Of a stretch of DNA of 64,000 nucleotides, positions 8,271-60,700 are shown one piece after another (the first letter of the stretch is position 1; the number at the start of each line of letters is the position of its first letter). Location: contig NW_020844479.1 in assembly GCF_003704095.1 (NCBI RefSeq), positions 1 through 64,000 of the forward strand. Direction: 5' to 3'. The notes beneath the pieces were generated by a model. That model saw only the letters and a program-made list of their open reading frames with translations. It was not told the DNA's origin and did not search any database. Position numbers and translations under genes: made by a program. The DNA is from Pocillopora damicornis (taxonomy: Eukaryota).

Positions 8271-8345
8271 CTTGAAACTAACAGAATTGTGCACCTGCGA
8301 GAGTCTGGGAAATAATTTTCTATTCGTTCGATGGTGTAGATACAC

Positions 8346-9173
8346 ATGATTTGTCTACCAACACCAAGAATGGTTTCTGTTCGTAATGTTGTTATAATCG
8401 TGAAGCAAATCTTGGAAGAGTGGATTGTTCGGGAGTCTGGAATACTGTCCAAAACACAATGCGAAACCTTGCTACGTTCTGAAGAGACTATCACTACCTT
8501 ACCTACAAAAAGAGGAAATTACCCGAGATATCCCCTTTATGAGGACATTTCAAAAAAGTTACATCAGTGGCTGTCCACTGGGAATTTTCCTGTAAAAAGC
8601 GAAGCTTGTGGATTACTTTCGGAGGAAAATTTTGTTCAAGAAAGAAAAAGAGTTTATGAAAAAGTTTCGCTGGTACTGGCCTCCCTTAACGATTCTTGGA
8701 CAGAGATTTCTGATGAAGAAAAACATCTTCAGTTTTCTTCTATCATAAAAATTCTTGGCGTTAGAGGATTGCTTGATCTGCTTAATATTCGTCACACGCA
8801 AGGAAGTGTTGATATTTTTCCTCCTCCTGTTAAAGTTCTAATAGAATCCTTCAACGAGAAACACAAACCAAATGCCAATTTGACAGTTGGTGCAAGGGCC
8901 TTGTCTAAACACTGCCACAGGGATTCCAGTGAATGGTGGGGTGCCTGTGCGGGTAGTGAACAAGTTAAGAACGAACATGCTATTACAGTTGTAATGCGTA
9001 TACTAGAAGATGCTTCATGGATTAATATCCACCTACTGCCACATGAGCTCAAAGTTATTGAAGTGAGGTGCACTGAAGGTTACGGTGCAAGATGGAGTCA
9101 TGATGGAAAAGTTTTCCGTGGATTTCTTGAGCCTCAAATGGAGGATGGTCATGCAGCAGGATGGAAGCATTGA
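8346..9173 (+). CDS. Intronless 275-aa uncharacterised protein with a conserved C-terminal GARALSKH...GYGARW...GFLEP...GWKH domain
   Basis: Clean ATG-to-TGA ORF. The C-terminal ~100 aa resemble, from memory, the C-terminal domain of plant ASCH-domain proteins. No ASCH domain is evident here. Confidence 0.85.
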   Translation: MICLPTPRMVSVRNVVIIVKQILEEWIVRESGILSKTQCETLLRSEETITTLPTKRGNYPRYPLYEDISKKLHQWLSTGNFPVKSEACGLLSEENFVQERKRVYEKVSLVLASLNDSWTEISDEEKHLQFSSIIKILGVRGLLDLLNIRHTQGSVDIFPPPVKVLIESFNEKHKPNANLTVGARALSKHCHRDSSEWWGACAGSEQVKNEHAITVVMRILEDASWINIHLLPHELKVIEVRCTEGYGARWSHDGKVFRGFLEPQMEDGHAAGWKH

Positions 9174-20430: not shown

Positions 20431-20912
20431 ATTTCCTTCTGAGGCTTGGGTTTTCTTGCGAAAACTTCATAAAATTACAGTTAGAAAAGTTGATCGGATG
20501 AAATCTACAAGAAAGGCTTCATTTTTTCACTGCTTCTTTGTTTTCTGAAGATTTCCTTTTATCAAATATTTAATGCAATCCTTAATCGACCCCATTCCTT
20601 TCTAGGGTGCTTTCCCCATATGCTGAAAGTAACGCTTGCGTCTACGTCAATTTTTTTCCGAGAGACCTGATTCTACAAGTCCACTTAGTTATTTGAACTC
20701 ATTGTGACCTTCGGCCGCATTCGTGTATTGAGTCGAAAACATCTTAAAGGTACGCTTTATCACTCTTAAATTATGGTTTTAGAGAGATCAATTGTGATTC
20801 TTTGTTTTTAATCACATTTTGCAGCTGTGAGGTCAAAGTCAAGCGGAGTTCTGTCCAGAAGACGTCGAACTGCTCAAACCTGTTGTAGTATTTTCCGTTT
20901 CGCCCAGACACG

Positions 20913-35460: not shown

Positions 35461-38374
35461 ATGGCGGAAGAGTTTATCGTCCAATACAGCGTGCAAAGTA
35501 ACCCGAGTTATACTACGAATATGGCTCTATTTACGGATGTGACAAACAGTAGCGAGCTTAGGCAACTGATCATCCAAGGAAAAATAGAAGCTGCCCTTTT
35601 AAATGCATCTATGGTACGGTCATTTCACTTGTATATTTACTAACTTCGTACATAGCTTGGGTAAGCTCACATGTTACCATACATAAGCTTAGGTTGAGAC
35701 TTGAGGAGAAAGTTTGCTTGCATTTGGAAGAATTTCAGAGAAAGCAGAGGTCAATAAGCGTACATATGAATATAAACACACCCGTTTTTTAATACGTTGC
35801 AATTTGAAAAAAAAGATGGAAATATGTACACCTTTTGCTTACATATATATGGTATACGAGTCGACGGTTGACAAGTTTGGGGGTACGAGATAAAACCAAT
35901 GGAAGATTTTTATATTCAATGCAATGTGAAAAAACTTGCCGGGGATTCTGCACTTTAGCTGCTTGAAAAGTAACAATATTTTACCCAGCATCTTCTGTAT
36001 GTCATAGGCAGACCAGCCACAAGTTTACTCTGTAAAGTCTCAGGCTTTGTATTTCTCTCGAGAGTGATTGTGTATATATGCCTGTGATTACGCTTTTTAG
36101 ATCATAGACCCATTTCATGTGGCAATAGCAGGACACAAAGCTCTGCAACTGTTTCAACAAGGAAAGATGAAGACCAAGACACTTCACTCAGAGATTGTTT
36201 TTAATTTGTCCCCCTCCACAAATGTAAGAAAATACATTAAGTAACAATACATTGAAGAAACTTAGCTGAGGTATTAGTGCATAGCCCCGCCTATAAAGCA
36301 AATAATTTTTTTAAGCAGGTCTTTAAAACACTTTGGATTGTGGTGATTATGAATGAATTCCCTTTTTGCGGATTAACCCATTGCATCCAAGAGTGATAAG
36401 CATCTAATTTCTCCTTTCTGTATCACCCTTGAATCACACATTAACCCTCTCACTCNNNNNNNNNNNNNNNNNNNNNNNNNNNNNNNNNNNNNNNNNNNNN
36501 NNNNNNNNNNNNNNNNNNNNNNNNNNNNNNNNNNNNNNNNNNNNNNNNNNNNNNNGGGGGGGGGGGGGGGTTGTTGTACTCTTAGTCACTTCATTCTACG
36601 GAAACAGTATTGAATTGCAGCTAGATGGGCCAGTTGGCCTGAGTGTTGAGTAATACATATTATAGTATTGATGGAATGGAGCTTTTTATTAATATATGCC
36701 TGTATCATAATGAATTTATGTGAGTTTGGAACTGAATCTTTTGCCCAAGAATCAGAGAAACATATTAAAACTGATGGTACCATCCTCACAGAGGCCTATA
36801 CAGGCTTTCCTTAATATAGATTCAGCCAAGCCTAAAAGCGGAGCTTGCATTTTTTTTTCCCGCACATCTCAAGGGCACAACGCCTTGCCCCGGCCAGGAC
36901 TAGAACCCGGGTTGTCTGACTTGGAGCCCAGTGCACTGACCACTGGACTACTGGACAAAGCCGTGGCATTGGTGTGCCTGTGGTACAGTTGACCACGCAT
37001 GTTAAAAGTAGCACCTTGTATGGTCGTACAGTTGTACATCCAAATTTTTTCGGCTTGATGGGTTACTACTATTTTGTATAATTATAGGGCTATGCTCTGT
37101 GAGCTCCGCTATAAGAGTTGAATTCTCACCTTTGATTATTTTGAGAGCTTAGTCAAATCTTCAACACCCTGGGAAAAGGAGAATCTAAGAATGGCTGGGA
37201 TATTAATCTTGTCATTGAAAAGAAGGTATTATCCATCAAACTGGTGTGAAATATCTTATATCATTGTTTTCAGATAAATGAATCTTTCAAGAAATTTGGA
37301 ATACTGGACAGTACAACAAGTGTGTTAGTTGTCATTGTGACTCAAGAAAATGCCAACAAAAAGGTTTGCATAAGTTTCATACCTGGTATCTACATTTGTT
37401 AGTTTTTAAAACTTTACTACATCAGACAGTCATCTACTTCTTGACTGTGATATTAGTATTTAGAATATACCACACAAGTGAATAGTGCCTTTCATGTGTG
37501 CTGATTGGCTAGTTCAGAAATGAATAGCAAGTTGTATTCGCCACCATGTGTATGGTGTTATTTGTGCATAGCTTTACTTTTGAAGGGCACAGCATTGACA
37601 CTTGTGCAATCGAGGAATTCAGCTACATGTGACTATTAGAAATAATTCATGTCTTCTGGAATATTAATGTTATGTGTTAATTATTTTTTTGAGACAGATT
37701 CTTGAACGCAAAGTTCGTGACAAAGATATGATTTACTTGGACATACAAAGTTTATTAAGGCTCTCAGAGAATTTCTAAGTTTAATTTGTACAGTAGGTTT
37801 GGGGCCTAAAAACTGTGGAACTTAAATGAAAGAAAATAGAAAAAGAAAGAAGTTGATTTTTAAGTCTAAACTTTTGGTATAAATTGCTTAGTTTTGAACA
37901 TTAAGGGACTTGTATATATTATTTGAACAAACACATTATTTTTAATTTCTCCACAGATTTCAGAAATCAGTAAATTTATAAATGGAGAACAAGTTTCTAT
38001 AACTGCATTGAGCACAATTTCTGACCAAGAAAAAATAAAGAAGGTAACTGATGTATTTCATTTTGAGATCTACTGTACTCATTCCCGAAGTGATTGCTAT
38101 CAAGAAATAATCTGGAGTAATTTATCAGTTTATTTGTAATTACTACGGTAAGTGCGAAAATGACAAACAGATGTTGCTATCATCAAAATGGGAGCAGATG
38201 GGTCAACAATGAATATTTGAAGATGTTTCTATGTACACAATTTGTTAAGGTTTTTTAGAAACTCTATCATTTTATTTTTCTTTTCAGATTTACGGTATTT
38301 CAGACGAGGAACTTCAATGCAGTTCGCTGCAAGACGGCGTAATCACACGAGTAGCAACCAAAGATGCTGCGTAA
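35461..38374 (+). CDS. TPRKB: EKC/KEOPS complex subunit TPRKB (CGI-121), 5 exons
   Basis: Exons 35461-35613, 36101-36223, 37274-37363, 37957-38043, 38288-38374, all phase 0. Encodes [76 protein letters not shown]. Confidence 0.95.
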
Positions 38375-41300
38375 TATTAATGAACTATTATTAGAAGGAC
38401 TAAATAGAAAGAAATCAATCTTTTACCCAATAACATTTATTTAACAAATAGCAAAGCCTCGGCTGTGCTCTGTTCTGTCGATTTAGGCCGTTGCACGACA
38501 CTCGATAAAGCAATCGCAACGACCAATCACCGTGAAGAAAAATACCACAAGAAGCCAATGAGAATTCAAAGTAAAAACACGCAAAAGTGCGGGAAAACGG
38601 GAGTGCCGAGTCGCGTTTGGGTGTAAGTTCTGCATCTAATTGGTGGAGAGGTTGGCGCGAGTTTCATTGGACCAATCACAGGGCGTGGTACAGCAAAACC
38701 AATAAAGTCCTGGCTACTTTCGACATTCGATTGAAAACTGCTCGAAACCTGAGACTAAAATGATTACATTGCTTTCAGAAGCAATTGTGTGTCGCCCATA
38801 AAAAGAAAAACAAACCACAGGGGGTGTAGTAAATATTGTCCGTCCATCTCGGTAGGAATCTAACCAACCATTTTGTCGCCTGTGGGTTTATTCCTTAGTT
38901 GGGTCTATACGCAGTTGGATCAATTTCTATCACTGTGTACACGTTTGTAGAGTTGAATAAAAGCATTTAAGTTTCGAAACAACAGTTATATTGCCCTATT
39001 GGTTTAGATTCTCGCTTGCTGATAACTGAAATATTTTACTTTTCGAGAACAATAGTCGACACAAAATGATTGACAGATTTGTCAAGTGGTAATTTATATC
39101 TAGCAAAAAACCTGTGTTATTCGTCATTCGAGAGGTAGACTGTCAAGCTGTGACGTTCAAGCGACTCTGTGATTTGCCCTTTAGCGTTTTAAACCTTCAG
39201 GTGAGGTTTGTTTTTGTCTATCTAGAGCTAATCGTTTGAAACACTGAATGGGAACGCTCCCATAACTTGTACACGTGTCCAGAAAAAAAAAATGAGAGCG
39301 CTTCCGCTTTGTACCGCCCCGGTTAGTGAATCAGAGAATTGTGACTACGCGCGGAGGCAACATAACTACAGTTTCATGTACACTTTTTTATGTTTATACA
39401 ATAACAGACTATTTCGAGCGCTTATCACTACCTAGATCGATGGGAAAGATTTGATGTGATGTGTTATTTTGACCATTTACAAACTGAAAACAAAGAATGC
39501 TGTCATTAGATAGATTCAAAAATCGTAATTGTTCTAACACTCATCTTGACAAACCGGTCAGATTAAAAGTAGCAGTAAGTTTCACCAGCCTCTGTTACTT
39601 GAACTGGGATGAGGTGGTAAGAAATACGAAATCACGGGTATGTTTTACGTCAGTTTGAAACAGTTAAAAACTCTATTTGTTTATCTACGCTTAAAGGACA
39701 CCCCATTGCGAGTTACACCTGAGCAAATTAACACCTTGGTTGAAATCGCAGTTTTCAAGGGCTTCTTTCAGTTTTAAGAAAAATCCTAGGGAGAACGTGA
39801 ATCATAACATGGGAGCCGACTACTGGAAAGCGTTGGAAAACTTGCATGTGTTGAAAAAAAAAAACTGCATCCTTATGATAAACTATTTCTGTGTTCTTCA
39901 GGAATACTCTTGAACCGCTACATACTCAATCACGATTAAGTTTCAAGTCTTGAAGCTGAAATATCGAGGCTTTGGAGAAAGCCCTTGAAATTTTTCGAAT
40001 TTCAGAAAATATCAAAGATTCGCACAGTACTAGCTTTTACCAGTTCAATTTGTGATAATTTTACGCTTAGATAACTATCTGTTGCAAAAATGTGTTGTTT
40101 TGTTTACATATTAGCAGTCATTTACACCCTAATTTAAACCCTTTCGCACACTTCAAAAATACAGGCAGATCGATTTCGCGAAGCAGACACAAAAAACATC
40201 AGTGTAATTGGAGGGAGACTCGCAATTAGATTTGAAACAGTCATCTGTTGTTTGTCTGCGTGGAAAGAGAGCATAATCCTAATTACTCTTTACCAATGAT
40301 CGTAATTTGCATATTAATTATTTGTTACTAATGACACCAGTTTCACATCTGTTCTCACATCTGTTTCTCAGAAATGTCCTAACATGACTGAAATGGCGCT
40401 CTGCTAGGGCTGAAAAGATCACATACTTTTACTACATAAATACAAGCGTCTTTTTGGTATAAAATTGCTCTTGCCGTCGAGCTTCGCGCCTCGAAAGTGT
40501 TAATATCCAAACTAAATCTTTCTCTGGTCAATGAAGCTATTAACTCAAAGCGAATTATCTAATCTTTTCGTTGATGTTCGCTAGCTATTAAATGAAATGC
40601 GTCAGATGTAATTCACGAACAGGTAAGTTTGTTGCTGTTCTGTATAATGAAGGGGCAGCAAACTGACAACAGTTACAAGTATGCATTTTGTGGTTTTGCA
40701 GAAATTTTTAACTTGGCCTCTGTAGGGGGGATGTCACTATGGGGAGTTATTTCTGTAATTTCATTCGATAAGCAACGGCTAATTCATTCCCGTCTCAATC
40801 AAAGCAACTTTGTTTTCCCCCGACACACCAATTCTGAAAAACAGATGTTTGTATTTTGGGCCCACGGGCTTTTCGGTCAGCTGTCTATGGAAACACCCTA
40901 AATTTCCTCTGATACAGATCCATGAAATTTTGTTCAGACAGCACCCATGAATACTTCTATGGCGCAAGTGAACACTGAAGATATGATCTAAAGCGTATTG
41001 CAAACTATGTGACAAATTGGAAATATTCACATTAGAAACAAACGTTTTAAATAAACATAGTGTTTAAAAATCCCAATTGGCGGGAGACAGACCAGTTGGC
41101 TTCATTCATAACAAAGCCAAGGCACTGAACTCGGGCGAACCGAGAAGGCTAATACCCCATCCATTCCCCTGAAAAAACATGTGATTCCCCAAAAATCCAC
41201 TACCGCTCACCCGGCGATGATAACTGTTAACTAGTGCCTAACCACACGGCTACTCTGCGTCGCTGAAAAAAAACGTCTTCTTTAAAGTGCATTCAGGGAA

Positions 41301-41580
41301 TTATGGACAGATGGCAAATAACATGTTGAAAATTTATGGATTTTGCCAAATTTTACCCGACCCCAATAATCTTAAGCTCATTTCTGCCGTTTCTCTTGCA
41401 ACGCGTCTTATTTCGTCCTCCAAATCTTCGTATTTCCCACACTTTTCAAAATCTGGGACAATGAGGCTCTTATGCCTCTCCTTTCCCCCCCCACCCTTCC
41501 CCCGAGCCGAGGGTCCTTCTGAGCTTTTAAACCAAGTTTGGTGATTTTCTATCCTCGTAGGTTGTCAAGTAGAAGCAAGA

Positions 41581-43000
41581 ATGAGTCTGATCAACAATCT
41601 TTCGAGCACACACTGGCAGCAAGTAGGAAATTCACCTAGTGATGGTAGGTAGATAGTCGACGGTAAAAAAAACAAACAAACAAACAAACAGAAAACGCCC
41701 GAGATGTCAAAATTTTTCGCCTTTTTTCCTAACCATTCAAAGGTCGGGATGTTTTTAACACGTCGACTTTTGCGTCGAATCTCGCGCCGTCTCGTGAACC
41801 AATCAAATGCATGCCTAAAGCATGATTTTTAGATACCAATGTTCAGCCCAGCAAGGTTTGAATTGAAGAAAGGAATTAATGGCATTTGTTGGAGATTATT
41901 TGTTTTTCATTATCTGTAACAATTCTTTCAAAGTTTTCAACTCAAGTTTTTCAGCAAAGCTGACGTATTCTTCTGACGTTATTTTCAGTAATTATAATAA
42001 TAGAAAGCACTTTTCATTGGCGGTATACTTACAGCCTCACTCTATCAAATTGATCAAAAAATTAGACTCTCCCGTTTGCGGCTTAGAAAGACACAAAATA
42101 ACTTGCAGATCACTAGCATGCGCGCAAGCTCTCATGACTCGCGTTTTCCGCCCGAGGGAAGATTGGAGACGAGTCAAGGAGAAGTTTGACGGGAGTCTGG
42201 AACTAATCAATGCCAGACTTCTTGCAGACCTCTTTTCGGCTCGTGTCGCTCAGGGCTTCATACTTTCCCGTAAGTGAAGAAATGCTCTTACCGAAGAGAT
42301 AATAATGAGGGCCGCTCGTTGGCTAACAAAACACGATAGCGTGCGTTATCATTCTTCGTGATGACGCGCATGGCCTGGTGAGTTGTGATCTGTAACCCTT
42401 CAAACCATAATAATAACATGCACATTCTCTATATTATTACTAAAAAGCAGAATTTAATAAGCAGTAAAGAGCTTTCATAACCCTTTGACTCCTACCAATG
42501 ACTAAAGAAACGATCACCAACTAAAGAAGTTGTTGATATTTCAACAAATTCTGCTTGACAGCGCCTTAGGAAACATATATTAAGCAGCATGGAGAATATG
42601 CATACTGAAGTACGGGTGTAAAAAATCTAATGGGTGATCATTTCCTTCCATGATTCTCATGACCATAGCGTTTGATTCAGCAGCGATGCTGTGAGGGGAA
42701 ATTAGACATTAGTTACCATTACGAATTGCAAGGTTAAACAAAATCCCCTTTTCCTCAGGTCTAGAATTCAAAGAGTACATTATCACACGTTCCCAAAAAG
42801 ACGGAAGCGTTTATAAATACGCTGTCCGTGCCGCTGACGATAACGACGCCCCTCCGAGGATATTTCATTTGGAGGGCGGTGACGAGAGGAAAGACCCGCT
42901 GAAAGAATACCGCATGTTGGAGATCGTGACGCGCGCGGATGGAAACAAGGTCTTTATAACTGGGATCAGAAATGGCGGAGATTGCGTTGTGAAGATCTGA
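41581..43000 (+). CDS. Unnamed small protein, paralogue A (101 aa)
   Basis: Coding exons 41581-41644 and 42759-43000 (phase 1), with a probable upstream exon ending at 40622. MSLINNLSSTHWQQVGNSPSDGLEFKEYIITRSQKDGSVYKYAVRAADDNDAPPRIFHLEGGDERKDPLKEYRMLEIVTRADGNKVFITGIRNGGDCVVKI. Supported by homology to paralogue B. Confidence 0.85.
42392..42738. mobile_element. piggyBac-like MITE with a second family copy nested inside
   Basis: Outer TAACCCTT...CAAGGTTAA is interrupted at ~42478-42625 by an opposite-orientation copy starting TAACCCTTTGACTCC. Confidence 0.5.
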
Positions 43001-45205
43001 TCACAGATCAAGAGTCCCAATCATTTTGTCACAGAAATGCACTTTAACTGTTTTGTGAGAATCGTTAATTGTGAAAGTAGTGTATCTCAGCTTGTGTTTA
43101 GTTACGAAGAAATCTCATGGCCCAAGAAACTAAGTCTTGTTTAATATCTGCCTTCAAGATTTACATCAAAACTGCCTCGTTATGCAAATGTCCGTCCCTA
43201 AAGTTGATACCGAAACGAGGCTACCAGTAAACTATGCCTATTGTTACAGCTTGTGTAACATTTCATATTGAACCTTTGGACGTGGATACAACTTTTTCTC
43301 TATATTTAACCTCTAGGTAGAAGTCGTGTGCACATAGAGGTTCCTTTCCTTTGGAAGGGAACCTTTTTGCCGCAGGTAACACTGTATATATGAGATAAAT
43401 ATTTTCCTTATTTCATGTAAAGCGATTAAGAATTATCTTTTAGACTTCTCATCTTTTCTGTCTTTTCCAATTATTTTTATGATATCCGTGGCCAATAATT
43501 ATCGATTATTCACAAAGGTGAATATAGAAGTGGATATTTACCGAGCCGCACAGCAGCGAGGTGAATATTCAACACTTTCACCGACACTGAGGTGAATAAT
43601 TATTTTAGAATATATCACATAAAAACGAAAAAATTGTTTATTTCTGTTAGTATACCCCCCCAAAAATGGTCGAAAATTTCATTGTTGACGTACGATTTTG
43701 TCTCTTCGGCTGTTTGGAGGTGAATAGTATTTTCTTATCACTCCGAACCGGCCAATCAGCGTGCGTGAAAAGCATTATTCGCATGTGTGGTTTTTACTAA
43801 GCTTACTTTTAAGTAACAGAAGTGTTGTTTCGCATCATTTTAATCAAGTTGGTTAATACTACTTTTTTTTTTTAAAAGCAGGAAGGCATGTACACAAATA
43901 AAATCACAGCCATAGCTTGAGCAAAGCTAAACTTCCCTGAGCAGATTGAAGCACTGAAACTGGTTTTTCACTTGTTCGCCTCAGAGTTCTATTATTTTTT
44001 ATTGTACTTTCTCCATCACTGAGATAAAAGTGATAAAGCTGTTGTTTGAATCTTTGTCAATTAATGTAAAAAAGGTCTCATTCGAAAGAGTGATCCAGAA
44101 TCAGGAGAAAATAATGAGACCTTATTTACTCTTGTCAGTATTTAGTGTCAGCACACCAGGCCAAATCCCAAGAGAATGTATTATGACGTGAAACAGTTAA
44201 GCGTTTCAAATTCCACGTTATAGCAATAATGACTTTCCTTCAAAAGGGTTGACGCATATGTAGAATTTTCTGTCCTGCAAGATTTGTTTTTGTTTTTGTT
44301 CTTGGTTTTGATCGTTATGGAATACTTATAAACGAACATTAAAGCGCTTGTCTCGTGATTTCGAGTTATTGTGTGATTATTTTGTCCTTGCTAGGGGGAG
44401 AAATCGAAAGAGGGCATGCGTCGTTTTATTGGACATATCTTCTCTACAATGGATTTAGGATTGAAAATTGAAGGTTCCCTGCACCCCCATTTCCGACCGC
44501 CACTCAGTTTTTCATAACTCTCTGATATATTCTCTTTGTCCAAAGTTTCGGTAAAAGGATGACTCCTAAGCATCAAAAACTTGCTCTGCGCTGCGCGGGC
44601 TACATACCAACTGTACATCAGGATGTCACACAGCCTTCCATCGCGTGACATCCCACACAACCCTCTTTTGCGTGACATCTAGTGGGTACTTGAAGAGAGT
44701 TTTTAAAAGCGAAAACATGAAATAAAAATTCCTTTATTCTAATTTATAATGAATACATCCTTAGAAATTTGTTTCAAATTCAAACACACAATTAGGCAGT
44801 AATTGTGAATGTTTTCTTGTTCTCGCTGATAATCATAAAAAGTTCATTATTCAACGCCTCTAGATCTAAATATAAATTTTCTGCATTGTCTGTCATTCAT
44901 TTCTCATAATTTTGCTTCAAGAATTTGTTGTTTTTATCCAGAAGTTACTCCTCGCAATATACTGTAGTTTTAGATTTAAAGAGTTTTTTTTGCACCCTTT
45001 TTGTTACTCTTCGCACTCCTTCACGGGAGGCCTAAGAATTTGCTGACCTTGATAAAGATACTTTTGATGATAATCTTTATGTCTGTACAAAATATATCTG
45101 GTAAAGGAAAATGAGTTTTACTGTTGTAGCTACCTAGTTCACAGAGACAGTTACGTAAATTTTTTGAGGCGATTTGTTCTGTTTTTCAAGGGTGTAGTCA
45201 AGTCT

Positions 45206-45545
45206 CAGGCCCTCATTATTAGCGCTTCAGAACGAGCTCTTCTTTGCCAGCGGGAATTGTGAAGTCTAGGCTCGATTACCAGTCGCTGTTCGGTAATATG
45301 AGCCTGCGTTCCTCCCCTTGAAGCGTCGAGCTGGCTCTTCTCAGGGAGGAGCGAAGACCGGACGGGAGAGAGCGGCGGGAATCGAGCCCATATGAGGCCT
45401 TGAGCAACACAAATCGTCGAGAGGTCTGGCAGGGTTCTAGCACTTATAATGAAGGTCCGATCCCCGGAGAACCTCTCCCTGACTCGTCTTGAATCCACCC
45501 AAGGGCGAAACGCGCGTCTTTAAGAGCTTTAATGATTAGGGCCTG
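45206..45545. mobile_element. MITE with CAGGCCCT terminal inverted repeats carrying a nested insertion
   Basis: Left end CAGGCCCTCATTATTA, right end TAATGATTAGGGCCTG. A related partial copy on the minus strand at ~42190-42315 lacks the ~45265-45388 block (GGCTCGATT...AATCGAGCC). Confidence 0.55.
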
Positions 45546-45845
45546 ACGCAGATTACGTCAGATTACGTCAAGCCTTCTTTTTTTTCTATTTAAGTCTGAA
45601 TTTTCTCTCATATTTCTCCATATGCTCGTTAATCACTATTTCATTGATTTTTAAACTCTAAGGGTTATCAAAATCATTTAGTCAGAGTAACTCACGGACT
45701 TTCGTAAAATAACTTGACGTCATAGCTTAAAGACTCCCGTCTGCAGTATAAGGTATCGGAAATAATGAAGACGTTTTAAAAATTTTACAATTCAGCTATT
45801 CTCTCAGTGCATCGAAAAACTTTGACTGAATGTTATAGGGTGCAC

Positions 45846-46644
45846 TTATTTCCTTACGACACAATCCCCATTGTCGTTTATCCCTGTGATATATTTGTTA
45901 CCGTCGACGCGCAGGTTTATAACTTGGATTTCCTTCAAGGGATCTCTGGATTCTGACGCTCCAGTAATGTGGAGCTCCACAGGAAGTTCCTTTTTCGGAT
46001 CGAAGGCGGAATATTTGTACTTGCCCTGGCCTTCTGAGGCTCGGCGAATGATGCGGTATTCATCAAAACCTGTGAAGGTTTATTTCATTGAGTTTGTTAC
46101 TTCATCATTTCTCTCACCTTCAATTTCACCTATTACCGAGATTTTTGCCTATGCAACAGGAAGGAGAAAGATTAGGGTTAGGGTGTAGGGTTTAGCGCGC
46201 CTAACCCTCGCGTGAAGCGAGGGTTGCGCGCGCACTAGCAGATCACTAGCATGACGAGAAGAAGTAAGGAGCTAACGCGAGCATCTTTCCATAAGGCACG
46301 GAAGTGGAAGAAACTCGCGGTGCAAGGGGGTGCATGCGTGTCAAACACGCGCGCAAAGAAATTATTTTGCAGGGTAAAGACTACGCACGCTTTTCAGATT
46401 TATGCAAGTCCTAACCCAACTCTGTTTTCTTTGGAGTTGTAATTCATAATTCAGTTGTGAATGAAGAAAAAATATTTGAAGTATCTAGATGAATAAGCTT
46501 TTTTTAGCTCTATGGTAACACTCAATGTTGCACAGTGTGTGTCAGATCCATTTGATTTAATGTAACCACCATTTCTGTACCTTCTAAATTCCCTCCTTCT
46601 GCAATTTGCCATTCTTCGGCGGACAAATAATTGATCAAATCCAT
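45846..46644 (-). CDS. Unnamed small protein, paralogue B (95 aa)
   Basis: Coding exons 46581-46644 and 45846-46069 (phase 1), with a possible 5'UTR exon ending at 50147. MDLINYLSAEEWQIAEGGNLEGFDEYRIIRRASEGQGKYKYSAFDPKKELPVELHITGASESRDPLKEIQVINLRVDGNKYITGINDNGDCVVRK. Confidence 0.85.
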
Positions 46645-49600
46645 GATTTGGTTCCGGGTGATCACCGTTGAGAGCTGCCTTGTTGAAGCAAAAACAGATC
46701 GCATATCATTGCGAGTTCTTGGCAAGAAATAGGTTTGTTTAGGGGGAAGTCCTGGAGAGATGTTCGTGAAACCCCCTCCCCCCCCTCCCCCCGTGACATT
46801 TACCACCCTTTGAGAGATGAATTTTCAAAAATTCACTCAAAATTCAAATCATATAATCTCCGTACAAAGAGAGCCAGCGAATCTGAACAATATACACAGC
46901 TTGAAAAATTTCACAATCAATAAAATACAGCGTGCATGTCTGTCAACATAACAACTGATTGGGTAGTCCGGGTGTGACATGCTGTAAACCCCCATTCCCC
47001 CCCATAATGCAGGTGTTTTACCAAGGGAATAAAGATCGTTTAGTAAACCGGCCATGTAGAGTGGATGGTGGGAGGAGGGGGAGGGGACTGAGAAAGGTGA
47101 GAAGACGCAGTTATTTCTATTGCCCCACCTCTCCCCTCTCACTCCTTTTTACTGTCGCTCACCCCTTGATACAAATTTATATCTCTCCCCAGTCTCCGCC
47201 GCTGTAAGAACCAAAGATGGCAGCTTTCATTTTCATCAAGCTCTACTCTGCTGGCTAATTATCCAACGATTTTGTGACAACCATGCGATATGAACTTTCC
47301 CACAGATAAAGAGTTTGTGGTTCAATCGAAGTCATTGTGTACTAAAACACACATGTTTTAAATCATGTATTTTAGGTGTTTGCAACATGAAGCAAATGTT
47401 GCCAATTCGACCGCGACAAGCCCGATGGCACATTCCATAAGGTGCCAAGAAGACGATTAAAAGGTGAACTGAGAGGCCGAAGAGGTGATAAGACGAGGGA
47501 ATCCATGTGGTGAGAAGCCAACCACACGCGCCATCGACAAACCGACCGCAATTTGACAACGCAGTCACTTGCTTCATGGAATTTCTCTGAATTCCACACA
47601 ACCAGAAACACTTTTCCAGAAATTTTGTGAGGCTTTGATTATCATAATAGGGCCCCTGAGCATGAAACCACGGCGGTGACGGCTACGAGAACATAGCAAA
47701 AAAACTGATTTCTAATGGGCAGAATTAAAGCTCAGCGCGTGCGTTTTCAAACTATGTACATTTCTCAGCCGTCTTCTGCAAAACAACAACGTGAGACCTT
47801 CAAAATTTGTGTAGTTTGTGGACATAAACCCCGATAGCAAATCGTATATCTAAGTTAACGCTGCTGGTGAAGTCGGGGTCTAGCGTCGTAAGAGACGGAA
47901 AACACATCTAACCCTAAGCAAAATTCCAACTTAAATTATAAATTCCTTTTCAATCGATGTCTTCTTCGGTGTTGCCATCCTGATTGCTTAAGGTCGCAGT
48001 CTCTAAGATAAACTATAAAGGCTGATTTTCAAGGTAGCTCAATTTGTCGGTTTCATTTTTCTGAAATGCCTTGGAAAAACTGGGATTTCGTTCGTCATTC
48101 TTGTGCCCGAGTTTTCGAAAAACTACTTTATCAGTGGTGATTTGTACGATTTTTAATTAATATTGCAATGTGATTCAAACATTAAACGATGTTAGGCGCG
48201 ATGCCGTGGCACCCGCTTCATCTTAATCAATAATTCTTCTGAAAAGGAGATTAGGATTTTTGAGCGATTTTTGTACATTGTTTAGGTGTTTTGGCAGCTA
48301 GACAGAGCATAATGATCAGACAAACGTAAAAGGCCCTTAGGATTTTACCGAACGTTAAAAAAAATCAAAAGATATAATTGGCCTTCAAATCAAATTACTC
48401 AAAATTCAAACAAACTATTCTTCATAAACTTTCTGCAGGCTAATTAAAAATGATAACTGATCTAAACTGGCCACAAATAAAACAAAAAAGCACGATAAAA
48501 TTTACAGATAGCTTTGTTTAGAGATGCTAATGGTTAAGATAGAATTTGTTCTATGAAAAGTCGGTCTCCCTTTTAATTACAGACTCAAATTAGAGTCTAT
48601 AACCTTTGTCCTGGCCGCAAATGTTTGTACTAACGGAACCCATTTCAACGACATAGACAAGTATGACTTGAATGCAAACAATTGGAAAAAGAATATTCAG
48701 CCGAAATAAAAGAAACCAGCACCCCACGGAGTTCAGCAAGTGTTCTTATCAATAACTTACACAAGAAAAGCCGTGTCTACGTTCTTTTAATACCGGGGTT
48801 TTTCCGTGTTTTCCAAAAATAAAACCTTTCTCGAGCGGTTGAAAATGACTTGCGACTTCTTATCGCTAGTTAAACTCTGAAACAAATCGCATTTCGATGC
48901 CTTTTTTGTGTGTGTAAATATTTGATACTTAGGTACTTAAATTCAGTGATTTTTTTAACCAAGTGCCTGAAGCACTTGTGGTTTTAGAGAATGGAATGGT
49001 CAAAAGACGTTTGTCTGTGCCAGTTGAAAATCACTGAGATTCCTTGATTCACAATCCACGCGGCATTGTGTGTAGGAACCATTCAAACAGTGACTGTCTA
49101 TCAGACTAATCGCGGTTTAGATATGAGGAGAGCTAAATTATTTCGACAGGTTTCAAGGAAAGGGGACGGTTCTACTCAACCGTAGCGTAAATATGTTTCT
49201 GATTGTATTTCATTTTTTTTAACTCTTTCATCATAAGAGAGCAACTATTTGCATAGAAAAATCTCTTTAACTTCCCTTTAAATCGCAATAAAAAATTTAA
49301 CTAAAACAACTGTAATGCTTTTGAAAATGGCTTTTCCTGTTGATGGATTTTTTCCAATGTATTTTAAGAAGGCTGCTTTTTTGACCCTCGAGGACAATAT
49401 ACAGTACACTTAAACTAGTGGTGACATGAAGCAAACAAAACCGCTTGAGGTATTCTGAATTTTTCAGCCTATAATTTGGTTGTAGAAGCAATAAAACGGT
49501 ATCGTTTTGTTAAATACTGAGATTAATAAGCTTTTTTGTTACGGATATGGACGCCAAATGTTATTTAAGGGAGATAACAGGCGACTGAAGTGGACTAAAC

Positions 49601-51463
49601 GTGGTTCGTTAATACTTCATAGAAATGTCATTTCCGTTCGCTAACCCTTCAGAGAATTGAAAACAAAAACATGTAACGAAGTCTTTCCAGTTGGGAACCA
49701 GAGCGAAATACAAAATCTACCTCATCTTCTTGCTTGTGAGAGCTTAATTACACACGTGTTGAAACACTCGCGTGAATCGCCAATATAATGCTATTACGAT
49801 CACTCAATTGTGAAACAAGGTTAGTCAACTCTCTTTTGTCCTGCACCCCTATCATAATGAAAATGTTCTTTACTGTAGACAAAGCCGAGTGATCTGAAGC
49901 TTGGATAACTTTGTGATCGAGAATGAAAACCGTTTACTGCTGCAAGCTGTTTTATTTAGGCCGCATAGAGCACCCTGGGTGCGTTAACAAGTGATCAGAG
50001 ATTGCCCAACAAATCAAGGCTGTAATTGACATTGTAAACAAATGCGAAGTTAACAACTTTAGCACGCTGTCGTTCTGAAAAAATCTTAAAACATATCTGT
50101 CGGATGTTTCACGATTCAAAATAAAGCTACAAAGCATACCATTTACCTGTGTCTTGTGATTTATGCAGAGAGTGCAAAGAAGGCTCAGTCGCTAAGTGGC
50201 AAAGACCTGCTATCCAACAAGCACCTTGTCGAGATGAGTAAATGACCCTTATTACTCAGTCGAAGCTAATTAAATTCACTATGAAACACGCAAGCGTGTG
50301 ATTGGCCTAAAATGCTGCTTATTGACGGAAGTGATCTGCAGTTCATTTAATTTCATTAGCTGACGGCATGAGAGGGTAAAACTCACGCAATCATGGAGCC
50401 ACGGGGCAACTACCTTAGTTTTTGAGTGGGTAATTTCGATCGCTTTAGCGAGTTTTTTTTCCTTCGTGTGCACGCTTTTCATAGCTATCAAATCTTACTG
50501 CCCAGCTTTAACCTTAGACAAACTCTAAGAAGCTTAGATCCGTGTCTAAGGGTTTTAACAGGCTTAAAGTACTTTGTTTCACAATATTCACTTATAGGGG
50601 TGCAAAAACACCCCTCGCAATAAATCGAGTTTAAATACTGATAAGTCTTAACCATTTCCTGAAATGACACGCAATTTGAGTTAGCAACGTTCAGTAAAAT
50701 GTGTATCGTACTGGGCGGTCATTATTTATGGCCTGAGAGGGGGTGGGTGAAGAATTTTGGTTTTGTCCCAATAGAAGTTATCTGATCTCCAAGTCAGGTC
50801 AGTATTCTGATGATCCCTTACTCCCTCCCCTCCCCCCCTTCCCCCCCCCCCCATCATTAGCAGTGCCAATTTTCTTTAGTTTCCCTTTACACCCTGTTAG
50901 GAACGACTGTCCCCCTTTCCCTGTGATCCCTCAAAATCCTCTGTCCCCCTCCCCCGAAGCAATAAATAATTTTCAAGTGGTAGTGGTACCTTTGATCATA
51001 AAGTGTACTGTTCAAGCATAATTACTTTAGGGGCTGTTTCCATATTCTCACGTTAGATTTCCGTGACTGGGTGCTCTGTGCCATTAACTTGTAGTATTGA
51101 CATTGAGAAACACATATTTGTTAAAACTCTTCGGAATTTTAAAGAAGTAGATAGATAGATAGAAGGTTGTTTCCAGTCCCTCGGTGATCATCCTTGTAAC
51201 CCTGTCGTCGATTTAACCCCTAAGAGTGACTATAATCTAAATTCTCTTTTTACAGTATCGCTACTGATCAAGCATGAAGGTCAGGAGAGGAAAGGAAATG
51301 ATCTCCAGCTTAAGAAATTCTCTACCATCATAGATAAACATAAGAAACGTATAGAGGAACAACGGGCCCCCTCGCATCTAGTGCAGGTAAAAGTTAGCAG
51401 CTTACTCCAAGACCCTGGAGCTGGTTCGTCTGCTCCCATAATGCTTTGGTGCTTTCATTCAAA

Positions 51464-53936
51464 ATGGCGGCCTTTTCGTTCTCTGCATGGTACTCCAGTT
51501 TATTTGCAGTTTCTATGGGTATTTTCCTACAATTTAACACAAAACAGTCACAGCCGTATATGGATGAGATTTTCCATGTCCCCCAGGCCCAGAAATACTG
51601 CAACTACAAGTTTGATGAATGGGATCCAAAGATAACAACATTGCCAGGATTGTATTTTATATCCTTCGCATGTTTGCGAACTTTGGCGTTTTTCGTTGGA
51701 CACGAATTACGTGTAGTGTGTTCGACGTTTTTTCTACGGATGGTTAATACTTTGTTCCTAATGGGTAACGTGTTGCTTCTGAGGCAGATCCTGTTAATTC
51801 TTCACTGCGATAATACTCGACAGTCACGTCAGGTACGGTTTTCGAATTTTATGAATAGTGTAAAGGACTCAGGTACTTTCTTACGCAATCACTTGCGTAC
51901 TTGCGTAAACGTGCGGTATCAGAACACTTATGTAATGGAAAGGGGGACGGTGGGGTCTGAGTCACTCACTAGGTATCGAAAGCTGGACCTTCACATCTGA
52001 GATCCCATGTCGACCCTTCGACCTTTGGAGTGAGTCGCATCTAATTTCTCCTTACAATAATCACCCCTGAATGAAATATTACGGTCACGAGAATGAAGGA
52101 ATAAGATCACCATCTAAAGAGGCTCTTGATTGTTAAGTCATTTTGGCAAAATTTCCGCACAGCCCCATACTTCATTATGCATCCATAAATGGGGCTTTAT
52201 ATTCAGTGTATCACCAATAAGACGTGCATGCATAATGAAGTATGGGGCTGTGCGGAAATTTTTCTGTAATTTCTTCTTGTTAGTACCTTAAGAAATGTGT
52301 CGAGAACAGTAAGGAGAAAATACATACTGATTTTGGGTGTCAAGGGTTAAACAAAAGAGCGACGGAGAACTCCTTGTTGAGTTCACTGTCATGACTATGT
52401 TTATATGCATTAAGCATTCTGCATGGATCAGAAATTTGGAAAGTGTTGTGTAGTTGGTATAATTAGAGCTTTTAGCTTGATCGTCAAATGAAGGAAATTG
52501 TTGAAGATGCTATTCAGTTAATGACAGAGGCACACTTGGAGAAAAAACTCCAAGTTCTACTAATTATGATTTAAACCAGTGACCTTCTGATTAGTACTCT
52601 GTACACTTTAAATGCTTTATTACTGAGCCATGGGAAACTCATGGCAAGCTGAGCTGTTCATTAAGGTCCATGGTGACAAACTTCCTGCATACTGCGAGGA
52701 TAAGAGTGTCACTGATGCTTATAAATGATGACAATGTACGTGTAAATAAAGATGGTAAATTTAAGCCTGGTGGTTTGAGTGAAAGATGTTATTCAGTGAA
52801 TAACATTAGTGAACTCAGCCTCAAAATTGTTACTGCGTAACAATTGGTGGTCATTAATTACATTTTTTTTTTCTGAACAGGGAGATGAACCCACAGAAGA
52901 AGAGATCTCTTCACCCATTAAATGTTCTGTGACGGCTTTGGTCCTGGCATTATTCCCTGTGATGTATTTCTTTACATTCCTCTACTACACTGATTCAAGC
53001 TCCACTTTCTTTGTTCTTCTACTGTATTACCTCAGTCTCCGTGGAAACCATTTCATTGCAGCCCTGATTGGTGCCGCATCAATTGCCGTGCGTCAAACTA
53101 ATGTCATATGGGTGGTGTTCACAGCTGGAGTGACTGCATTGAGAACTTTACAATCAGTTGAGAAAGAAACAGCTTCATCAACATTTTTCACAGAACTGAA
53201 GGAATATATCAAATCATTTTACCACAACTTTTTCAAGATGTTCAGATATCTCTGGGCCTATGGTTTTGTTGTAGCATGTTTTGCTATTTTTGTGGTCATG
53301 AATGGTGGAATCGTAGTTGGTGATAAGAGTCAGCACCAGGCATGCTTAAATTTCCCACAGTTGTTTTACCTTCTGACTTTTACCCTTGCATTCAGTAGCT
53401 CCCAGCTGCTTTTGCCACAAGACATTGTAAGCTATTTGAAAACCTTTAAAAACATTGTCAAGAAACCATTGTATGTTATTGGGTTACTTTTATCTGCAGT
53501 TTCCATAACCTTAATCATTTACAAATTTACATATGTGCATGAGTATCTTCTAGCTGACAATCGGCACTACCCATTTTATATTTGGCGGAAACTTTATGCC
53601 AGGCATTGGGTGGTGAAATATGCTCTTACACCTTTGTATATATTTTCAGGATACTGTATTCACCGTCAATTATCTCTAAAACAACCAAGAACATGGCTAG
53701 CTATGTTCTACATCTGTGTCTCCATGGTTACTGTCCCCCAAAAACTGTTGGAATTTCGGTACTACATCATCCCATACATTTTCTATCGGCTTCACAGTCC
53801 ACTAGGGTCTTATACAAGAGTTGCTTTAGAATGCATGTTATACATAGCTGTGAATGCAATTACTTTCTACTTGTTCTTGGAAAAACCATTTCGTTGGGCT
53901 CACAGTCCTAAGGAAGTTCAAAGGTTTATGTGGTAG
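51464..53936 (+). CDS. ALG10: Dol-P-Glc:Glc2Man9GlcNAc2-PP-Dol alpha-1,2-glucosyltransferase (ALG10/DIE2), 2 exons
   Basis: Exons 51464-51832 and 52881-53936. Motifs PYMDEIFHVPQAQKYC, WDPKITTLPGLY, FLYYTD, RQTNVIW, NGGIVVGDK, LLADNRHYPFYIW, LLEFRYYIIP and C-terminal QRFMW. Confidence 0.97.
52010..52350 (-). mobile_element. piggyBac-like MITE in the ALG10 intron, interrupted by a hairpin element
   Basis: GACCCTTCGACC...TTTCTCCTTACAAT...CAAGGGTTAA, with an unrelated inverted repeat at 52148-52262. Confidence 0.65.
52148..52262. repeat. Perfect 35-bp inverted repeat with a 45-nt spacer
   Basis: AAAATTTCCGCACAGCCCCATACTTCATTATGCAT (52148-52182) and its exact reverse complement (52228-52262). 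Confidence 0.9.
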
Positions 53937-54740: not shown

Positions 54741-57700
54741 TCATATGTCAATAAGATTTCCCTGCAATAAAAATAAGAGAAGAAATGATGATGTAAGTTG
54801 TTGAGTACTGGGAAGAAAACAAAGAGAACTTATAAAAGATCTCAATAAGAATGAAGCTTTGTTTTGGGAAGCCTTCTTAAATTCAAGTGTCTCATCATTA
54901 CTGTCAGGAATATCAATAGTATCAAAGATCAAGACTGTGAATTTGCTAGTCTTTTTTTGAGGGTTACTGTAGACTATCATTATCATCATTATAATTATTA
55001 TCATTCCCCAATCTTTGGTACCATGCCAATCTTTAAACCTGTGGTGTTACAATAATTGCACTTACTTCCCTGGCGACAGCAGGTGACCATTCAATCAAAT
55101 TTCCAGCAACTGAATGGTCACTAGTGTTCACACTTTTCGGATCGATGGAAACAAACTGGGAAGCTGGAGAAAATGGATCGGATAATCTTGTGTTAGAGTG
55201 TGATAGTTGCAGATTTGGGTCTGGTTTTGAGGCAGAACTCCTTGGTTTAACTTCAGCTGATGGAGAGGAGCTGAATGAAAGGGAACCAGGAGGCTCATTG
55301 TTGATGCTGATTGATCTAGACTTCTGTGACTGGGATCTAGTGATCCTGTTTTTCAAAGGAGTTGGCAGAAGAGAGCGTCTTTTTTGGCCATTTGCACTCA
55401 GTGACTTTCTTTTTGAAACATTGCTGGAAGCTGCTAAAAAATTAATAGTAGTAAATAGACTTGAAGTAAGTAGGGGTAAAGAAACTGTGACAGTTACAAG
55501 GGATTTCCATTAAAAAAAACTAGTGGGGGTGGGGGAAAGTGTTATGTAACAGGAGCATATGTTACATAAAAGCTTCACTCCAAGCCCACTGAAATTTAGC
55601 CTTGGAATTCTTAATTCTCTGATCTGATTCCCAAACCCACTATGTTAAGTGTTGGCTGAGCACCCATCATTATCTGTCAAAACAAAAGTGATTCCAAGTT
55701 CATTTTGTGTGCTAATAAAGTTGGAGATTGGCTTCCTTCAACCCCAGAAACATACATGTGTACTAATCATGCATTGAGTTTTGCTCTGCAAGGAAGGGCA
55801 GTTTACCACTAAGTTAACAAAGGCATCACTAAATGGAGGTAGGGAGCCTGAAACATCCAGGAACTTCTACTATTAACAGCCAGCTCCTAGATGGAGACTT
55901 CTCCTGTGGCTGGCAAATCCTAGCAACTCAGCTATGAGCCCCCTCACAGGAAAGGGAAACAGGCACCTGTAACAATGAATAAACAGTGGAAAGAGAGTGG
56001 GAAGGGATGGGGAAAACTGCCTGGATGATGAGCTGGCACTCCTCACAATGCTGCAAGTTCACACTCAAAGCACACACATGAATGCCTCAAACAAAGAGCA
56101 TGTGGAGTTCTGACACATGTGCATATGCAGAAAACCGCTGACCACTAGAGAATGCTTATGCTCTTTGTTATTAACTCCATTAAATTGCATTTAACTGCAT
56201 CAATAATCATGATCTCTACCTGGATTTGGTGGAGTAACATTATCAGTGGATGCATAACATGCATTTTCAGGTGTAGATGGTAGGGGGGCATTCTTGTTGT
56301 GAGCCTTTGAGGATACAGCTGCTGTTGTACCACTTTTGCGCCTTTGCACAGATGTTTGGACTTTTGAGGTACTAGCCCTTGGTGTGACACTACCTCTTCT
56401 CCTTGGAGTCAAAGGCACTGTCATGCTTTTCCCTTTAGTGGGAGTTTGTGCCTGTCTAACAGCCTGGCCTGTTGGAGTGTTACTCCTACTTTGCCTTACA
56501 GGTGTATTAAATGACTTGGACCTCTGTATGCTATTGGGTGTTTGTGACCTGGTGACCATTTGCTCAGAGCACATTCCACTCCAGCGACGCCCAGGAGTGT
56601 GGCCAGGCACCTTCTTTGATTTCAGAACATCAGTTGGTGTTGGTGGAGCTTTCTTGCTGTGAGTGACTGGCTGTGGAAGTGCTTTCACTGGCTGAGGTCG
56701 TCCTTTAGGCCTGGAAAAGGTAGGCTTTGTCAATGCACTATTTCCATTTACTGGCTTCAAGCAGGCCTTAGTAACTGGAACTTTGCGTGCACAGACAGTT
56801 GGAATAGATGAAATGTCAGAAGAAGAACCTTTGGAGATGACAAAAGTCTCATTCATGTCACTTGATTGAACTGATACAGCACTAGAAGTGGAAGACACAG
56901 AGGAAGATGAACTTGTGCGACGTCGTCTTGGCTGACAACCAAATCCTGGAGGTTTTATTCCACTTTGTGAAACTTGTGGAATCTATGAATTGGAAGAAAA
57001 ATTAATCCCAGCTCAACAAACATAAGGGTCTTTACTACATTTTGAAACCACTTCAGGGCTTTAATTGAAAAGTGTATTAACTAAAGATTAAAGAGAAGTA
57101 ACATGAGAATTTTCTCCATGCTTGGATAAACAATTTCCAAACAGCTGTGGCAGGAGAAATCTTCAATCTCCAATACCCATAGACAAAAATTGCCTGTACT
57201 CCAACAGGGTTTGTGCGTTTTTTAAGCAGCGAGAATTCCATGACTTTCCATTTCTTTTCAAAAAATAAAAAAATTACCTAAGTTAAGCAAGTGTACTGTT
57301 GGGTCCTTTCCAAATGGTTCACAAATTTGCATAAATATCACGCAAGAATGCAGTGCAAACAAAAATGTCTGCAAGAGTAGATCTTACAACACCTGCTAAT
57401 GTTTATTTCTACTGAAATTAAATCTTACATTTTGACTTATTGGTTAATTTTTCAAAGACAGATCTCCACTGCTTTGAGCTCATAAGAATGACCGCAGATT
57501 TTCCACAAGTTTCCATGACTTTACAGGTCCTAAACCAAAATTCCATGACTTTCCAGGCCAGGTACAAACCCTGTTCTTACTGATGAAGTTAATTTATTTG
57601 AGGTCTACTTTGTGTCTACATTAAGCTTTATTTACCTTTTCATTCTCTGAACCACCAGTTTTCCGTCTCAGACCATACAGATGTTCTACTTTTATAGGCT

Positions 57701-60700
57701 GAAATGATTTAATACGAGCAAGAGTTAATAACAATCTGAACTTTGTACTCGCCACTGCCCTAAATTGAATAATCAACAACAGATTGAACAGCTTGAAGAA
57801 ATGACACAAAAACAGAGCTAAAGTCAGAAAACTTTCTATAAAACTTGACAAATCCTATTGATTTATAGACTGAAACAATCATGGTTCAACAAGTTAAAAA
57901 AAAAAGGCTAAAAAAGACATTTCTTTTTAAGGGAATGAAATTTGATTTTAGGAGGTAAAGATGGATTAAATGTTATTGCAAAAATTATTAATAATGGTAA
58001 TAGGACTGAGTGGAATCCAATTTGGTCTGTAATCATACAGGTGATGAACAAAATGAGACAACCGCAAAGTAGGGGTCCAATTTGTCAGTCACAAGTATGA
58101 TTACAAACAGATTTGGATGAAACAAAGTCCTGTTACCAATTAATCAAAACTAAGACGAAATTTGAGAAAGAAATTAAAAATCAGTCATACATTGTCATGA
58201 AAAAAAACTGACAGTTAACTTGGTGAAATGTGAGACAACAGTGTGTGCACATGACATGTTCTGTCCACCTACATAGGCATGACATGTTAACTTTCCTTTT
58301 AACAGTTCTATTAACACTGCTCAGTTACAAGCATGACATGTACACTGTCCTTATTAGTGTTCAAATCGGGCTGGTGATAGCCAATCACTTTAAAGAATTT
58401 TGAAGTAGTTTTGATTAGTAACCCTTTAATTCCCAGATCAAATCTGTAATTCTTCTCACTGTAAACCATACAATTCTTATAATGTTAGTTCAGAGAATTT
58501 AGCATTGGATCTACGAATTATCCTTAAATTGATATTTTTCTTTATTCTCATCACTTGTCTGGTTGATATTGTATTGATATTTTAAAGAGAAATTCTGTCA
58601 TGCTCACTCATAGGAGTTAAAGTGTTAAGTGGTTCCAGGTTAACTGACCATTCAGTACAGGTGGGGGACTATACAAAAAGGCCATCGAAACTCACTGAAG
58701 GATGACTCACTGTGACCACTTAATGGAGGTGACCACTAAATAGAGGTAAAAGTTACTGCAATTAAGGGGGAACAATTTCAGGACTTTGACAACTGACTGC
58801 TTATTACAGGGTGAGTGCTTAGTTTTGTGCTGCTTAACACAGGTTTGACTATGGTACTGTAGTTTTAAAACGTGCCAAACAATCAGCAGCTTTAAGTGTG
58901 CTTGTAGTCACTGGGCTGCCAATCTTAAGCAAAATTGTAGGTACATTTTGAAAGTTTTGAATGTTTGGGAAACATTAATGAAACAGCACTGCAATCATAC
59001 TTACAGAATTAAAACAACTACGAGTCTTCAGAGTCATCTGTGTTGTGGGAAGCTTGGATTGAGCAAACTTAGAAGTATTTTGCAAAGGACGTGCTTTTCG
59101 TGCTTTGAAGGGTGACTGAAACACTCCACTTTGGGTGTTGCTTTCTTGCAAAATTCTCCTTGGAGTAACAGGGAAGTTCATGTCATCTGGAAATTCTGTT
59201 GACTGTGGTGAAATACTGCTTGCCGACTCAGGGGAAGAAGCAGATTTTGTAGTTCTTTGGTCATTTTCTAGATCTCTTTCAGCTGACACAGCTTTTTTAT
59301 CATCTTGGACAGTAAATGTTTGTGATAAAAGCTTACATATATCACGATTCTCTTTTTCATCTGTCATATTATCATTATTCTGGGTTAAGGAAGAATTTTT
59401 GATGAATATTGACACTGCAGTGGCTTCTTTAAACAGTTCTGCAATTTGTTCACCATTGAGGGGACTCAAGGGCTTAAATTTTTCATCATCTTGAACACCA
59501 CTGTTAACAGTAACACATCTTTCTCTGTGACCCACAGGACCAAAGAAGACTTCATCCTCATCTTCTTCATCGGCATTAATCTCTCTGATAAAGAAAAAGG
59601 AGAAAAAGCATTATGTATTATTATATGGTGAGGTAGTCTTGAGGTACATCTGAGTGTTCTGATTGGTTTTTGATTGGTCGAGATTTTGTAAAAAAGGTCA
59701 TTATCCTTGCACTTTTATTTGCGAAAGCTGGAAAATTCAAAATAAACAACTTTGGTCTAAGTGCCATGCAATAAACTTCTTATCAATCTTCCTTGCATGA
59801 GCCATACTAGGAAATATTGGCCCTAATAGATAACTTTGTATGGACCTTACCACCCTTAATCCATGCTGCCAAGACTGATGGCCAATATTTTCTAGTACAG
59901 GCCTCAATCTTTTTCAGTAAGTTGTTCTTCAAAAGCATGTACCAGTAAAACAATTTTAAGATAACTCTTGGGTGAAGGCAGAATTTTGAGTGGGAGGTTT
60001 TTTACTTCATTGAGGAGCATGCCTGGTTGCTGGTTAGTCTTGGAAAGAAGGGTAGACTTCTAAATAGAAGAGAATGATCATCCAAAATTTTAGATTAAGT
60101 CCCTCAGGAAGAAAACTCTTGGCACAAGCCAAGCTTTTTTTCACTCCTTCAAGAGACCACTTTGAAGCAGAGACAGTTTACTATGATTTCTTTAGGTATT
60201 GATGTTACAAAAAAAATTCATTGATCTTCATAGCTGCAATGGGATTTTGCACACTCTGACAAGTATCCCTTCCCCTTTCATTTGAGTGCCCCAATGCCCC
60301 TCCCCCCCTGCCGCCAAATGGTTGCATTCATATTAGAGCAGGTAAGGAATTTGACTTCCTTTTTACATTGAGACTTCGAGAAAAATTTGTACTTTTGTAT
60401 ACTCCTTCAACCACCGGTATATGTCTAAGACCTAACGCACATTTGTGTGTCGAAAAACATAGAAATAACAAACATATTTCATATTTCCTGCTGGAGCCAT
60501 GGCATGTAAGCAACTGTAATTCAACCGATCTTGTGGGAACAATTGCTATTTACGTACTTTCTGGTTGATAACCAACAATTGATACACACATGCAGTGTAA
60601 CTTACCGAACATCAAAATCAATTGGCGAGAGTGGCACGTCAAAATCGAACTTCTCGTCTTCAATGAGACTGGACACACCGCCAATAGCACTGGGAAACGC

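Follow-up and report, generated by a model that had tools for sequence, protein, structure and literature searches.

The described systems closest to the proteins considered here are the OB superfamily (the RecO N-terminal, SSB/PriB, RPA and MCM domains), the NTR domain, and the small stand-alone OB proteins CipA and SilF/CusF. NTR modules are extracellular, disulfide-bonded and have helices at the end, and CipA and SilF/CusF are not known to bind nucleic acid. To our knowledge, animals have few stand-alone OB proteins beyond the known DNA-maintenance and translation sets. In this report, we examine two convergent genes, A (plus strand, ATG at 41581) and B (minus strand, ATG at 46644), in a 64,000-nucleotide stretch of the coral Pocillopora damicornis (contig NW_020844479.1, positions 1 to 64,000; the window). 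Genes A and B are real, expressed, spliced paralogues, and each protein is predicted to fold as a single stand-alone OB barrel. They belong to a real family, apparently undescribed, on a well-known fold. We will focus on the gene structures, the range of the family, the predicted fold and the functions that the fold would allow.

Gene structures and RNA support

The RNA support for the pair was drawn from four runs from four studies and from a second set of four runs, all of which are contigs; strand and expression level are therefore unreadable. The coding sequence of gene A runs from ATG 41581 to a donor after 41644 and from an acceptor before 42759 to the stop at 42998-43000, giving a protein of 101 amino acids. 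The start-codon exon (41561..41644) is preceded by a non-coding 5' exon at 39102..39200 (5' end approximate), which was recovered as RNA contig pieces with a GT..AG joint at 39198/41559 that is present in two of the four runs of each set. In record 22 of run X7 (second set), the gap between the neighbouring pieces is exactly the 85 nt of the start-codon exon, the middle one of the three. The coding intron (41645..42758, 1114 nt, GT..AG) is followed by the last exon (42759..44360), which contains the 3' UTR after the stop with AATAAA/ATTAAA-type signals at 43897 and 44338.

Gene B has a similar layout on the minus strand: its donor follows 46581, its acceptor is at 46069 and the reading frame stops at 45848-45846 (95 amino acids). 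Its start-codon exon is 46581..46678, its coding intron 46070..46580 (511 nt, GT..AG) and its last exon 44718..46069, in which the 3' UTR carries a polyA-type signal at 44738. A non-coding 5' exon was placed at 50149..50250 (upper end approximate) next to a GT donor, as in runs X1 and X14 the contigs have loose ends at 46680, 94-104 nt long, whose sequence starts at 50149.

As the initial annotation had proposed, both genes have a 64-nt ATG-to-donor segment (41581-41644 and 46644-46581) and a phase-1 intron, and every motif that it had listed was found in the spliced frames. Of the two coding junctions that it had predicted, 41644/42759 is present in three of the four runs of the first set and is absent among the joints listed for the second, and 46581/46069 is present in all four runs of the first set and in two of the four of the second. 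Run X19 of the second set covers all 30 bins, introns included, with no splice joint among those listed; it behaves as DNA, since its contigs run through introns. The proposed start codons stand because neither leader contains an upstream ATG, and an N-terminal extension of A or B is ruled out on the same ground. The two transcripts end tail-to-tail about 360 nt apart (~44360 for A and ~44718 for B). In a distant coral, an intronless metagenome contig (L027:2175-4756) is continuous from the last exon of A to the last exon of B; the two 3' UTRs may overlap in that coral, or the assembly may have joined them.

The description of the genes as unannotated needs to be corrected, since NCBI lists both products under the label hypothetical protein. 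B is identical to P. damicornis pdam_00017988 (P0015), and A differs from a P. meandrina protein (P0003) at 3 of 101 residues. The model pdam_00017987 (P0004) places the second exon of A behind a different first exon drawn from the A intron, where the open frame 41867-42277 supplies it, and the RNA joints do not support that exon. Several runs have loose ends at 42144-42175, a sign that this intron may hold a repeat, and the NCBI model is therefore probably wrong. Additionally, the A-like database proteins P0010-P0014, P0040 and P0042 seem to carry frameshifts or to be read in part in a different frame. Some other coral may thus have additional copies of A that are possibly decayed.

Paralogy, family range and selection

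The relationship between A and B is clear in protein and weak in DNA, as had been claimed. A comparison of the database copies P0003 (A) and P0015 (B) gave 42% identity at E 6e-21, and the local score of A against B was 166, while none of 2000 shuffles exceeded 59. In a codon alignment, the DNA is 49% identical and synonymous sites are saturated. Three single-protein searches for further paralogues in the coral's own genome returned only this locus and one match at E 1.3 that contains a stop, although distant copies may be missed.

A profile was built from 11 coral sequences. It retrieved 65 representatives of clusters at E <=0.001, all 51-196 amino acids long, and, from a 90% library, 47 proteins with an E of 10 or less. 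Thirty of the 65 representatives were looked up and species names were obtained from nine clusters: Nematostella (two), Paramuricea, Crassostrea, Babylonia, Littorina, Elysia, Owenia and Dimorphilus. Other searches added members from Dreissena, Mya, Oculina and Porites. Judged from these matches, the family is common to corals, anemones, molluscs and annelids, and the suggestion that it is lineage-restricted was too narrow. The two Nematostella members have consecutive accessions (XP_032236246 and XP_032236247), which suggests that they are neighbouring genes; this pair is open to knock-out and localisation. The Elysia member is recorded as monocarboxylate transporter 12, a label that looks like a transferred misnomer because the protein is only 101 amino acids long and its identity to the family is about 31%. 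Coral-specific words, which are insensitive, gave 126 pattern matches in virus contigs, none of which was confirmed, and 31 matches in prokaryote genomes, of which one of 24 residues (L029) remained that was not recovered by a 75-sequence profile.

Searches against known families support the view that the proteins belong to none that is recognised. The two second exons matched no Pfam family, 11 members gave a single Pfam match at E 0.11, and 75 members gave a best E of 0.0002 (Lip_prot_lig_C, in 3 of 75) with other families in one or two members each (25 of 29 families listed). The best NCBIfam match of the 75 members was E 0.0054 in three members, and both results were treated as noise. By sequence, the best matches in PDB were at E 2, 0.98 and 0.83.

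In a tree of 75 rows and 103 columns, 7 A-like sequences group in a starred clade whose branch is long (1.02), and 10 B-like sequences group in another starred clade. Many forks of this tree are open, among them those that join the two clades to each other and to the Nematostella pair. Oculina carries both A and B. Twenty-two metagenome loci were found, of which two contain both genes (the genomic L028 and the intronless L027, which are nearly identical); the genes are convergent there, at identities of 52% for A and 66% for B. The remaining 20 are mostly too short for both genes, and in L021 the 3.8 kb behind B do not contain A. L028 preserves the gene order TPRKB, A, B, ALG10, L021 keeps ALG10 upstream of B, and the coding intron has an identical place and phase in the seven genomic loci inspected. 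By Nei-Gojobori counting, dN/dS is 0.10-0.19 in seven of nine pairs and two pairs are saturated, in agreement with the proposal of an old duplication under purifying selection. The duplication would predate the split of the sampled corals, with A then diverging faster.

Predicted fold and conserved residues

The initial annotation had described small soluble proteins rich in beta strands, and this description is supported. The best 19-residue hydropathy is 0.35 for A and -0.11 for B, there is no hydrophobic stretch, and neither a signal peptide nor a transmembrane segment was found. In the predicted models, a five-stranded barrel superposes on known OB domains. This core would span about residues 23-88 of B and be joined by a short N-terminal helix, a strand containing Trp12 and a further strand at the C-terminus (DCVVRK). 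In both models, seven strands are at least 3 residues long, two of them only 3-5, and the third long strand is followed by a crossover of 14 residues. RecO, SSB/PriB, RPA, MCM, Teb1 and HIN domains dominate the fold-comparison lists, and Foldseek returned nothing at E up to 0.001 against PDB and viral models.

The only invariant residue is Pro65, and conservation is strong at hydrophobic residues of the strands, at glycines and in a D-P-L turn. The most conserved positions (F23, Y26, I28, Y39, Y41, L54, I56, G58, P65, L66, L74, V76, I82 and G84) would be core or turn residues. The conserved aromatics share the alternation of strictly hydrophobic positions and therefore probably face the core. 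The C-terminal cysteine that had been noted as conserved does recur (Cys91 in 60 of 75 members), but some members have I, V or S in its place, and for this reason it looks structural. Cys72 occurs in 20 of 75, and no other cysteine recurs. The 75 members keep no catalytic or metal-binding residue set; Met is conserved only at the start, and His recurs only at position 30, in 20 of 75. The pI is below 6 in 52 of 75 members.

Possible functions

We infer all functional steps for A and B, and we lean, with some reserve, towards an unnamed animal family of about 97 residues in which one OB barrel would serve as a cytosolic, non-enzymatic binding module, most likely for a protein partner. The barrel surface would dock another protein or its own copy rather than stack on bases, a reading favoured because the most conserved positions would be core or turn residues, no catalytic or metal set is kept and the proteins are mostly acidic. 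A cytosolic location is likely since there is no signal peptide or membrane segment. The initial annotation had raised an A+B heterodimer, and two predictions of the complex both scored 0.00, where the mark was 0.34; these were made without alignments and with the partner fold uncertain, and are no evidence either way.

A possible alternative, which we consider rather unlikely, is that A and B are small ssDNA- or RNA-binding OB proteins (SSB-, RecO-N- or cold-shock-like) that act through conserved basic residues. Nucleic-acid-binding domains fill most of the fold lists and K/R is kept at positions 30, 40, 63, 67, 75, 94 and 95, but the conserved aromatics are in core register and most members are acidic. 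Searches of Pfam, NCBIfam and PDB sequences gave no match of note that would show common descent with OB families.

It is improbable that A and B are intracellular, disulfide-free relatives of the NTR (netrin/TIMP/C345C) modules that regulate a protease or other enzyme. The closest NTR structure is the meteorin C-terminal domain (7tlh), with an identity of only 4-5%; B scores 5.5-5.6 against the same domain, the difference in Z to the RecO/RPA rows is about 1, and the proteins lack a signal peptide, a conserved cysteine set and, in the models, a C-terminal helix. An extended form, for which we see only a slim chance, makes the family an ancient intracellular, disulfide-free counterpart of NTR/TIMP that arose before the cnidarian-bilaterian split and controls an enzyme within the cell; corals would have retained two diverged copies, paired tail-to-tail in a fixed arrangement. 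If true, the family would connect OB proteins of the cytosol with the NTR domain found, in secreted form, in netrins, TIMPs and complement.

A role as carriers of small molecules or metals, either as a calycin-like barrel or as a CusF/SilF-like metal chaperone, has an equally small likelihood. The initial annotation had suggested a calycin/META-type barrel and ESM Atlas gave feature scores of 0.86-0.89. These are under the 0.9 bar, a second member (Nematostella) had no feature match on a poor Atlas model (pTM 0.22), and both confident models match OB-fold domains instead. The short strands and the lack of a conserved His/Met ligand set also argue against it. In four fold lists, none of the 50 rows listed in each has a title naming a lipocalin, FABP, staphostatin or META protein, an absence that does not exclude a family. 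One row of a further list (7l5l, probability 0.08) is a structure that we take to be lipocalin-derived.

Finally, A and B are very unlikely to be diverged stand-ins for the small OB subunit of genome-maintenance complexes (RPA3, TEN1 or RMI2), as canonical copies are found elsewhere in the genome, on other contigs (RPA3 at 27 bits in one exon, over the cut-off, TEN1 at 72.8 bits, and RMI2 at 53.6 and 44.8 bits) and none of the 75 members matched PF08661, PF15490 or PF16100 among the families listed.

Neighbouring genes and the rest of the window

The left neighbour is TPRKB/CGI-121, whose later exons (36101..38980, plus strand) are supported by RNA joints and by a matching open reading frame in L027 (Pfam CGI-121, E 4.5e-38). 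The first exon of gene A begins about 120-150 nt behind the TPRKB polyA signal at 38956. RNA contig X7 record 22 spans the TPRKB last exon into gene A (38286-39200 and 41561-43898), and in the distant coral L027 (644-2412; compare L028:2087-6478) also passes from one into the other. These joined contigs may reflect read-through, a promoter located within the 3' end of TPRKB, or a fusion made by the assembly.

The right neighbour, divergent from gene B, is ALG10 (51451..53936, plus strand; Pfam DIE2_ALG10, E 2e-29 and 9e-91). The non-coding stretches 49350-49445, 49970-50031 and 50252-50393, in the first intron of gene B and upstream of it, have 73-77% identity with L021 and L023 and are likely conserved regulatory elements between the two genes.

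Elsewhere in the window, a 593-codon open frame (20889-22670) has many hydrophobic segments and no Pfam match at E 0.1; its product looks like a multi-pass membrane protein and may be otopetrin-like. A 277-codon open frame (8340-9173) has no convincing Pfam match and a conserved-looking C-terminal set of His/Cys/Trp-rich motifs. A gene of the endonuclease/exonuclease/phosphatase family (10562-12791; Pfam E 2e-11) has a Cys-rich, membrane-like insert near its end, and a GTSE1-like gene lies on the minus strand (55033-59610; Pfam GTSE1_N, E 2.6e-13).

Comparison with known systems

Literature searches by accession or locus name and by keyword found no paper on the family, in a library with poor coverage of subscription journals. 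The term OB-fold does not occur in the main text of a survey of dark gene families in corals from 2026 (PMC13044578), the supplement of which may list the family; a term search of the main text of PMC11565725 gave no mention. Two hypothetical coral proteins can now be placed in a definable family that is kept in cnidarians, molluscs and annelids, and they have a corrected gene model and a confidently predicted fold. Until a partner or phenotype is found this is a catalogue gain and not a new mechanism; discovery of a partner would give the common OB fold an added function.

The calycins (lipocalin/FABP/staphostatin/META) have eight to ten up-and-down antiparallel strands, which the seven-strand models of A and B do not match. 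CipA from Photorhabdus and SilF/CusF are also small stand-alone OB proteins, but they are bacterial and have no sequence similarity to A and B. CipA superposes with an rmsd of about 4 A, and A and B lack the conserved His/Met/Met(Trp) metal site and the export signal stretch of SilF/CusF. Compared to the NTR domain, the family has no signal peptide, one semi-conserved cysteine and a C-terminal strand. The OB superfamily is alike in predicted fold, but identities are 2-19% with no PDB sequence match below E 0.8, and A and B differ from it in being stand-alone, mostly acidic proteins with an extra N-terminal helix and Trp strand and an extra C-terminal strand.
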